Virus record (IMG/VR): IMGVR_UViG_3300033075_000861
Coordinates: 20,291-84,290 of that record
Reading direction: 5' to 3' (one strand)
Length of the DNA: 64,000 bases
Source of the DNA: a virus
Lineage: Duplodnaviria > Caudoviricetes
The notes under the pieces: model-generated
Database searches by the model: none
Told to the model about the DNA's origin: nothing
What the model saw: the letters and a program-made list of their open reading frames with translations, nothing else
Part shown: one piece after another, positions 17,904-18,048 of the stretch
How positions within the stretch are numbered: position 1 is the stretch's first letter
Layout of the letters: each line of letters starts with the position of its first letter
Made by a program: the position numbers and the translations under genes

Positions 17904-18048
17904 TGACCGGAGAAATAGTCACTAAGGGTTTTTCTGTTTAGCTTCTCGGCCTTAGGGTTGGGCGAAGTGGCCGAGGTAGGATTTGCACCTACAATCTACA
18001 CTTTTTCAGGGTGTTGCTGAAGTATCCCTTAACTGCAACTTCCGGTCA
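17904..18048 (-). ncRNA. Circularly permuted tRNA-Phe(GAA)-like RNA
   Basis: Anticodon arm, T-arm and CTCGGCC-A precede GGCCGAG-AA-GCT; ends pair via TGACCGGA/TCCGGTCA. Confidence 0.7.

Follow-up and report, generated by a model that had tools for sequence, protein, structure and literature searches.

Permuted tRNA genes are found in a handful of algae and in one archaeon, and Y RNAs are tRNA mimics rotated at the anticodon stem. Here, we describe an element of 148 nucleotides (nt), e1, in a phage contig of 84 kilobases (kb) from IMG/VR (record IMGVR_UViG_3300033075_000861); the stretch analyzed, called the window below, is 64 kb long. The helices of a tRNA are all present in e1, in an order that begins and ends in the D-loop, and its two ends pair to form a bulged "handle" of about 20 base pairs (bp) rooted in that loop. 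We conclude that e1 is very probably a conserved, functional, tRNA-shaped RNA permuted at the D-loop, and that it belongs to a small RNA gene family of large and huge phages that is apparently undescribed. Full-text searches of the literature for permuted tRNA together with phage or bacteriophage returned no description of a phage gene that retains a whole tRNA with its anticodon arm, has its rotation point in the D-loop, and is held by a conserved handle.

Permuted tRNA genes, as they occur in Cyanidioschyzon merolae, in some green algae, and in Thermofilum pendens, resemble e1 in that the 3′ part is encoded before the 5′ part on one strand, the acceptor strands are bridged by a dispensable, variable linker, a helix flanks the permutation point, and nonpermuted relatives carry an insert at the same position. 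They differ in that e1 comes from a bacteriophage, is broken in the D-loop, and has a noncanonical body with A8A9 and G55. The flanking helix of e1 is also not a canonical bulge-helix-bulge, which has 3-nt bulges around a 4-bp central helix; its two bulges, of 3 and 5 nt, are separated by 6 bp. Furthermore, a homolog of the splicing endonuclease (PF01974) was absent from the five phage records searched.

YrlA RNAs of bacteria and phages (RF02553), especially that of Mycobacterium smegmatis, share with e1 a T arm and a loop-capped acceptor stem carried on a terminal helix. However, YrlA is opened at the anticodon stem and lacks an anticodon loop, whereas e1 is opened in the D-loop and has a canonical anticodon arm. 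The 5′ strand of e1 (GACCGGAAG) comes near the Ro-binding motif GNCGAAN0-1G; it and GACGGAAG of e2 each depart from the motif by one extra G, and the motif is not kept in L182 and L330. RF02553 gave no match on window positions 17700-18250 at E values up to 10. The model does work on these phages, since it matches L041 and L330:1085-1200 in two related contigs. In L041, a DUF7873 gene (15928-16713; PF25283, E of 1e-65) is followed about 550 nt downstream by the YrlA-like RNA (17267-17396; 38 bits, below gathering), and the record has no TROVE gene; in L330, the YrlA-like RNA (minus strand, 47 bits) lies between tRNA-Pro and tRNA-Met.

Two other kinds of RNA deserve comparison. Species 1 and 2 of T4 (rnaC and rnaD; 119 to 139 nt) are, like e1, structured RNAs of stable-RNA size that are encoded among the tRNAs of an operon, and both phages have structural genes of the T4 type. 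In rnaC, a T arm is present and the region that follows the 5′ end is expanded; unlike e1, rnaC is not permuted, and neither rnaC nor rnaD resembles e1 in sequence or handle. Two-piece transfer-messenger RNA (tmRNA) of alpha-proteobacteria and cyanobacteria likewise comes from a permuted gene, the transcript of which is cut to two base-paired pieces that form a tRNA-like domain. In contrast to it, e1 has no tag frame and no pseudoknots and carries an anticodon arm where tmRNA has its mRNA-like domain; neither ARAGORN nor Rfam found a tmRNA in the e1 region. The initial annotation of this DNA had named a strong hit to a described Rfam family as grounds for rejecting its proposal; no such family matches e1.

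The element and its parts

e1 lies at window positions 17901-18048 on the minus strand. It is the whole spacer between tRNA-Leu(GAG) (18049-18131) and tRNA-Leu(CAA) (17817-17900), as called by ARAGORN, and directly adjoins both. Read 5′ to 3′, its order is D-stem 3′ strand, anticodon arm, variable loop, T arm, acceptor 3′ strand, linker, acceptor 5′ strand, and D-stem 5′ strand. The handle is made of 8, 6, and 6 bp, with a 3-nt bulge (AGT) on its 5′ side and a 5-nt bulge (ATTTC) on its 3′ side. The parts are given below in 5′-to-3′ order, with e2 denoting a paralog in the same window and L182, L330, and L315 denoting contigs with permuted homologs. An unpermuted homolog is found in LR756511.1, a 595-kb uncultured phage that is the nearest named relative (Mre11 identity, 52%).

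18041-18048, minus strand: outer helix of the handle, 5′ strand UGACCGGA (DNA TGACCGGA); 8/8 pairs with 17904-17911; starts 1 nt after tRNA-Leu(GAG)
18035-18040, minus strand: middle helix of the handle, 5′ strand AGUUGC; 6/6 paired in both e1 and e2, between which G-U switches to G-C
18032-18034, minus strand: 5′ bulge AGU; conserved at 3 nt, AGN in relatives
18026-18031, minus strand: inner helix of the handle, 5′ strand UAAGGG; 3 compensatory pairs relative to e2; 95% of pair cells paired across phages
18019-18025, minus strand: joiner AUACUUC, within the GAUACUUC motif directly 5′ of the D-stem 3′ strand; kept in e1, L182, L330, and L315
18016-18018, minus strand: D-stem 3′ strand AGC, with A26 directly after it (18015); partner GCU at 17940-17942; CAC/GUG in L182, AAC/GUU in L315
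17998-18014, minus strand: anticodon arm ACACC-CUGAAAA-AGUGU, with GAA at 18005-18007 and a single C-A mismatch; within the partial Rfam tRNA match
17993-17997, minus strand: variable loop AGAUU; identical in e1, L182, L330, and the unpermuted LR756511.1 homolog
17976-17992, minus strand: T arm GUAGG-UGCAAAU-CCUAC; G replaces U55; nearly invariant across the e1 family
17968-17975, minus strand: acceptor 3′ strand CUCGGCC plus discriminator A (17968); 7/7 complementary to 17945-17951
17952-17967, minus strand: linker capping the acceptor stem; 16 nt, unstructured, no CCA encoded
17940-17951, minus strand: acceptor 5′ strand GGCCGAG (17945-17951), A8 A9, D-stem 5′ strand GCU
17929-17939, minus strand: joiner AAACAGAAAAA, D-loop-like 5′ part; found in homologs as AAACAGAA, AAACCAAGAAAA, or AAAACAAAAA
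17904-17928, minus strand: 3′ strands of the handle, with inner CCCUUA, middle GUGACU, bulge AUUUC (17912-17916), and outer UCCGGUCA
17904-17911, minus strand: outer helix of the handle, 3′ strand UCCGGUCA (DNA TCCGGTCA); partner of 18041-18048
17901-17903, minus strand: 3-nt tail AAC ahead of G1 of tRNA-Leu(CAA); an identical AAC tail lies between the L315 homolog and tRNA-Val

The initial annotation had named most of these motifs, and each lies on the minus strand where it was placed, among them the inner handle strands TTAAGGG (18032-18026) and CCCTTAG (17928-17922), the anticodon loop CTGAAAA (18009-18003), and the single C-A mismatch of the anticodon stem. The interrupted helix that it described is also present, but the middle segment, given there as AGTT/GACT, is better drawn as the 6-bp helix AGTTGC/GTGACT, which includes two G-U pairs. 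The AUUUC bulge is kept in L315, L182, and, as AUGUC, in e2. The possibility that the bulges form a K-turn was discarded on visual inspection, as neither bulge is followed by G-A/A-G pairs.

Measured against a canonical cloverleaf, e1 has the four helices in rotated order, and its anticodon loop is of 7 nt, with U33 and, at position 37, a purine. Its T arm and acceptor 3′ strand are identical at 21/25 positions to those of the neighboring tRNA-Leu(GAG), its nearest paralog, and the four stem differences between them make up two compensatory pairs, one of which spans the permuted acceptor stem. The UGCAA T loop is also found in tRNA-Leu(GAG) and in a tRNA-Cys of the same phage. More generally, several otherwise ordinary phage tRNAs (18049-18131 and 17588-17670; L176-L187) combine UGCAA, with G for U55, with AG for GG in the D-loop; the G55 and the D-loop AG may constitute a covarying tertiary pair.

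Homologs and covariation

Homologs were sought with a covariance model of e1 (R1), a second model (R2), and motif scans of IMG/VR for (a) the T arm plus variable loop and (b) GATACTTC upstream of GGTGCAANTCC. The permuted members, found in other uncultivated phage contigs, are as follows.

L182:5824-6013: permuted homolog, anticodon CCU, 56-nt structured linker; 50 bits with R1, 117 with R2
L330:2553-2694: permuted homolog, anticodon CAU, 12-nt linker; 66 bits with R1, 140 with R2
L315:4219-4531: more ambiguous permuted homolog, anticodon CAU, linker of about 190 nt when read as permuted, fitting exactly between tRNA-Pro and tRNA-Val; 62 bits with R2
L327:1050-1181: weak permuted member in a 545-kb contig, 11-nt linker, irregular 8-nt anticodon loop; 25.7 bits

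That the same layout is found in other contigs argues for a real RNA gene family rather than a one-off rearrangement. Judged by sequence, e1, L182, and L330 are unambiguous permuted members; their acceptor 3′ strands are complementary to the downstream strand at 7/7, 7/7, and 6/7 positions, respectively. The L315 handle is nearly identical to that of e1, including the AUUUC bulge and the AAC tail. Linkers are not conserved in sequence, range from 11 nt to about 190 nt, and for the most part lack structure beside the stem, as a spacer would. Acceptor stems are of 7 bp with a discriminator of A or C, and the anticodon loops are of 7 nt with U33 and A37-A38 (N-U-NNN-A-A) around the triplets GAA, CCU, and CAU. 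The name "tRNA-Phe-like," given to e1 at the outset, does not extend to the family, in which homologs carry CCU or CAU, and the T arm and acceptor of e1 itself resemble those of tRNA-Leu(GAG) and not those of the two tRNA-Phe genes. Directly upstream of the permuted element in L330 lies a match to the cspA thermoregulator (2891-3260, minus strand; 79.9 bits, above gathering).

A scan of the whole LR756511.1 record with R1 gave a 28-bit match to a homolog in normal order. It reads GGGAGAG, AA, GCU, AAACAGAAGA, an insert of about 55 nt, AGC, and G, and continues with UUUCC-CUCAUAA-GGAAA, AGAUU, GUAGG-UGCAAUU-CCUAC, CUCUCCC, and A. The insert folds as a long hairpin closed by GAAA; the D-loop helix is closed and the acceptor end is open. 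Common to e1 and this homolog are A8A9, the GCU/AGC D stem, the AAACAGAA joiner, AGAUU, the T arm, and the 16-mer GAGAAGCUAAACAGAA at the acceptor 5′ strand region of e1, and their acceptor and anticodon stems differ by compensatory changes only. The e1 window itself holds an unpermuted tRNA-like gene (19474-19594, minus strand) that may belong to the same D-loop-expanded class. It has A8A9, its D-loop contains about 50 nt of inserted sequence, its T loop reads UGAAAAC, and it encodes CCA. Unpermuted tRNA-like genes were also seen in L288, L311 (6667-6785), and L332, with the acceptor GGGGGAG/CUCCCCC, a GUA anticodon loop, and an encoded CCA. Their long D-region insert ends in GAUACUUC; the motif is therefore also present in normally ordered, D-loop-expanded genes.

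Covariation was assessed in an alignment of the four best permuted members to R2. Standard pairs occupy 92% of the pair cells, and 23/39 pairs are changed on both sides; none of 500 shuffles did as well, and sliding the partners by 1 to 3 columns lowered pairing to 33 to 48%. Changes on both sides affect 5/7 pairs of the acceptor, 4/4 of the anticodon stem, 2/3 of the D stem, 6/8 of the outer handle, and 3/6 of the inner handle. All cells of the anticodon stem (four modeled pairs) are paired, the T stem is nearly invariant, and the middle handle helix is the weakest across phages, with 62% of its cells paired. In other phages, compensatory changes preserve the permuted order and all of the helices. 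Accordingly, the proposal that began this work, a tRNA circularly permuted at the D-loop with a long flanking helix, is supported by its homologs, both in the compensatory changes of the acceptor and D stems, which it had put forward as a check, and in the loop-capped acceptor.

Other searches returned little. A comparison of the e1 region with 50,697 GenBank phages (megablast and blastn) found the flanking tRNA-Leu genes only, and the exact pattern of T arm plus acceptor strand had no match. Five IMG/VR matches to the exact handle pattern were all attributed to chance, as were most of the matches listed for the 14-mer GAAGCTAAACAGAA and for a first pattern of GATACTTC...GGTGCAA. Relatives reached through two neighboring genes, for an Mre11-like protein and a protein of 343 amino acids, have the syntenic Leu/Ser/Tyr tRNA array but no copy of e1 or of the handle. 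The closest of them is a 14.5-kb contig of JGI sample 3300059965, with flanking genes 79% and 72% identical, which spans the homologous interval; the contigs of the next relative stop short of the tRNA array.

A paralogous handle around an unpermuted body

The handle of e1 is found a second time in the same operon.

16350-16483, minus strand: e2, paralogous handle RNA between tRNA-Leu(UAA) and tRNA-Phe; an e1-type handle around an unpermuted tRNA-Leu(CAA)-like body

e2 is matched by R1 at 32.5 bits (E of 6e-6), and its cargo scores 40.8 bits against the Rfam tRNA model. The handle pairs are standard at 20/20 positions in both e1 and e2, with three compensatory pairs, three G-U/G-C switches, and one indel matched on both strands between them; the G-U switches imply an RNA helix and not a DNA inverted repeat. 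A search by geometry, independent of sequence, returned many chance helices, and the exact geometry of the handle was found only in e1 and e2. A second copy of the e2-type RNA, in which the acceptor end joins an unpermuted tRNA-like body to the handle, was seen at L315:7412-7534 (plus strand). It has the GG-UUCCUUC-G junction in common with e2, and ARAGORN calls its cargo tRNA-SeC(tca).

Possible maturation and function

The minimum free energy (MFE) of e1 is -46.3 kcal/mol (z = -3.97), a value reached by 0/200 shuffles. Folding had been suggested at the outset as a check, and it bore out the stability but not the anticodon arm. The MFE fold replaces that arm with a hairpin, ATACT-TCAG/CTGA-AGTGT, which buries GAA; the cloverleaf-type fold, at -43.2 kcal/mol, is 3.1 kcal/mol less stable, with a pair probability of about 0.1 for the anticodon stem. 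This is the first of several points that weigh against a permuted tRNA. The Rfam tRNA model (RF00005) scores e1 at 21.6 bits, below its gathering threshold of 29, and the match is partial (model positions 9-63; 17976-18034). ARAGORN at its default threshold does not call e1, even rearranged in silico, a check that the initial annotation had suggested. Residue U8 is almost invariant in tRNAs; of the conserved core (U8, G18-G19, U55), e1 has AA at positions 8 and 9 and G at 55 instead, and its D stem is of only 3 bp. The covariation alignment was fitted to the structure of the model and holds only four sequences. Among them is L315, for which the best acceptor partner lies upstream (6/7) rather than downstream (5/7) and the first 75 nt are an ordinary tRNA by Rfam (33.7 bits); it may be a duplication intermediate. 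As for a role in decoding, the e1 operon already has two ordinary tRNA-Phe(GAA) genes, L330 and L315 each also hold an ordinary tRNA(CAU), each record searched has one clear copy, and a 20-bp helix leaving the D-loop may be unfit for EF-Tu or the ribosome.

When the ARAGORN threshold was lowered to 95% of default, tRNA-Phe(gaa) was called in 9/54 D-loop-trimmed variants of e1; at this level, the call was made with the joiner at 17929-17939 joined straight to AGC. Shuffles (n = 500) gave no calls at 85 to 90% of the threshold and one at 80%. Comparative data favor the anticodon arm of e1 over the competing hairpin.

For the fate of the transcript, we tentatively favor a two-piece maturation, though we would put it at somewhat less than an even chance. 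Cleavage of the flanking tRNAs would release the 148-nt RNA, with 3′ processing of the upstream tRNA defining its 5′ end and RNase P, acting at the downstream G1, its 3′ end. RNase P would then cut at the acceptor stem, which is of 7 bp and bears the discriminator and a floppy linker, and trimming and CCA addition would follow, as in M. smegmatis YrlA. The predicted outcome is a tRNA-like molecule in two pieces, nicked but held by the handle, in which the acceptor end is free and the anticodon loop exposed. Such a molecule might be aminoacylated and decode, or it might act as a stand-in or decoy for tRNA-directed factors; the initial annotation had proposed this kind of maturation, with adaptor, decoy, and protein tether as candidate roles. 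That the acceptor is meant to open is suggested by the canonical anticodon loops with varying triplets, the strict 7-bp acceptor and discriminator, the floppy and variable linkers, and the free acceptor end of the unpermuted homolog. A published precedent is M. smegmatis YrlA, where RNase P cleaves a loop-capped 7-bp acceptor, both in vivo and in vitro, and CCA addition follows, which yields a two-piece RNA (Chen et al. 2014; PMC4201824).

It is possible, if somewhat improbable, that the acceptor cap is never opened. In that case, e1 would be a sealed mimic of tRNA, akin to Y RNAs or to T4 species 1, in which a protein-bound handle displays a tRNA-shaped head, and the head could serve as a decoy or platform for tRNA-directed enzymes, for instance, host anticodon nucleases or modification enzymes. 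Conservation of the unpaired bulges AGN and AUUUC in e1, e2, L315, and L182 points to specific recognition. In e2 and L315:7412-7534, this handle holds unpermuted bodies, so the handle looks constant and the tRNA head looks like cargo. A single clear copy per record, beside ordinary tRNAs of the same anticodon, resembles a special-purpose RNA more than a member of a decoding set, and the noncanonical A8A9 and G55, the bulky D-loop helix, and the YrlA-like RNAs of L041 and L330 fit such a mimic as well. However, e1 itself has no YrlA match. TROVE/Ro60 (PF05731) is absent from its contig (about 17% of the genome), from LR756511.1, and from four related contigs, and DUF7873 is absent from the e1 contig. 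A sealed molecule also sits poorly with the caps, which are long, floppy, variable linkers and not tight loops, and with the same retained acceptor, open-ended homolog, and canonical anticodon loop that point to opening.

A broader reading, in which bacteriophages have a pathway of their own that makes functional tRNAs from permuted genes, appears unlikely; the handle would be a cut-and-rejoin site or a clamp, RNase P and CCA addition would provide the acceptor end, and the product would be charged and would decode.

Cutting and rejoining as the actual route we regard as quite unlikely. An endonuclease would cut at the two opposed bulges of the handle, a phage RNA ligase would join the ends, and RNase P and 3′ processing would open the acceptor. 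The result would be a covalently continuous tRNA that, as in the LR756511.1 homolog, has a hairpin in its D-loop, and the route would be a phage counterpart of the Cyanidioschyzon merolae pathway. The layout is indeed that of a bulge-helix-bulge, with bulges of 3 and 5 nt on opposite strands, 6 bp apart, and joining within the bulges would recreate the closed D-loop hairpin of the unpermuted homolog. In addition, 4/5 records with a family member or the LR756511.1 homolog encode a member of the RNA ligase family PF09414, and two encode RtcB; yet, RNA ligases are common in jumbo phages anyway (PMC7824862). The archaeal-type endonuclease is missing from those same five records, the geometry is unlike the canonical 3-4-3 motif, and the middle helix is the least conserved part of the handle. 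No gene for a ligase, RtcB, or a 2H-phosphoesterase was found in the 84-kb contig, itself about 17% of the genome.

A dead relic, debris of tandem tRNA duplication and deletion driven by the homing endonucleases of the array, is very unlikely: the array does hold an endonuclease VII-like gene and two HNH genes, one of them directly upstream of tRNA-Leu(GAG), e1 resembles that neighboring tRNA in its T arm and acceptor strand (21/25), and L315 has the look of a duplication intermediate, given its two candidate 5′ halves, but the permuted order recurs in unrelated contigs of other GC content and with other neighbors, every helix shows compensatory change, the fold is far more stable than shuffles, and the handle is common to, and covaries with, that of e2.

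If phages do make functional tRNAs from such permuted genes, permutation of tRNA genes extends to viruses of bacteria and to a new position in the molecule. The family provides a natural pair of topologies, permuted and unpermuted, for one RNA body. With it, one could examine how capped acceptor stems are handled by RNase P and by the enzyme that adds CCA, whether two-piece tRNAs are charged and used, and what purpose is served by the odd tRNA-like RNAs of huge-phage tRNA operons, those of the T4 species 1 and 2 type included. Standard tRNA finders and Rfam overlook this conserved class of phage RNA genes.

Genomic context and other observations

CheckV puts the completeness of the contig at 17%. 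It has a GC content of about 61% and encodes a T4-type sheath, baseplate, gp15, and Mre11/Rad50. The tRNA array is bounded by a promoter-like site (20661-20634) and a strong terminator (14363-14332), both on the minus strand, like all of the tRNAs. The operon (14447-20306, minus strand) has tRNAs only for Leu, Ser, Tyr, Phe, and Cys. Beside it, at 20686-21717 (minus strand), lies the gene for the 343-amino-acid protein, which has no known family and is followed by a Leu/Ser/Tyr (class II) array in six contigs (L044-L049); in LR756511.1 (L009:15271-18394), the Leu/Ser/Tyr array adjoins an Mre11-like gene. The two HNH genes are paralogous (phrog_10822; 18096-18683 and 18785-19537) and, like the endonuclease VII-like gene (16570-16875), lie amid the tRNAs on the minus strand; the reading frame of the first overlaps tRNA-Leu(GAG) by 35 nt.

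Some spacers and the leader of the operon are structured as well. Downstream of tRNA-Leu(CAA), the regions at 17671-17816 and 17460-17587 (minus strand) are tRNA-sized, with terminal stems and MFE values of -54.5 and -44.6 kcal/mol, respectively; neither has an Rfam match, and the first bears a T-arm-like hairpin. An 18-bp terminator-like hairpin lies in the leader (20387-20427, minus strand), between the promoter-like site and the first tRNA, and a perfect 14-bp hairpin follows the first tRNA-Phe (20148-20232, minus strand). Together, these two hairpins may form an attenuator or a processing structure.

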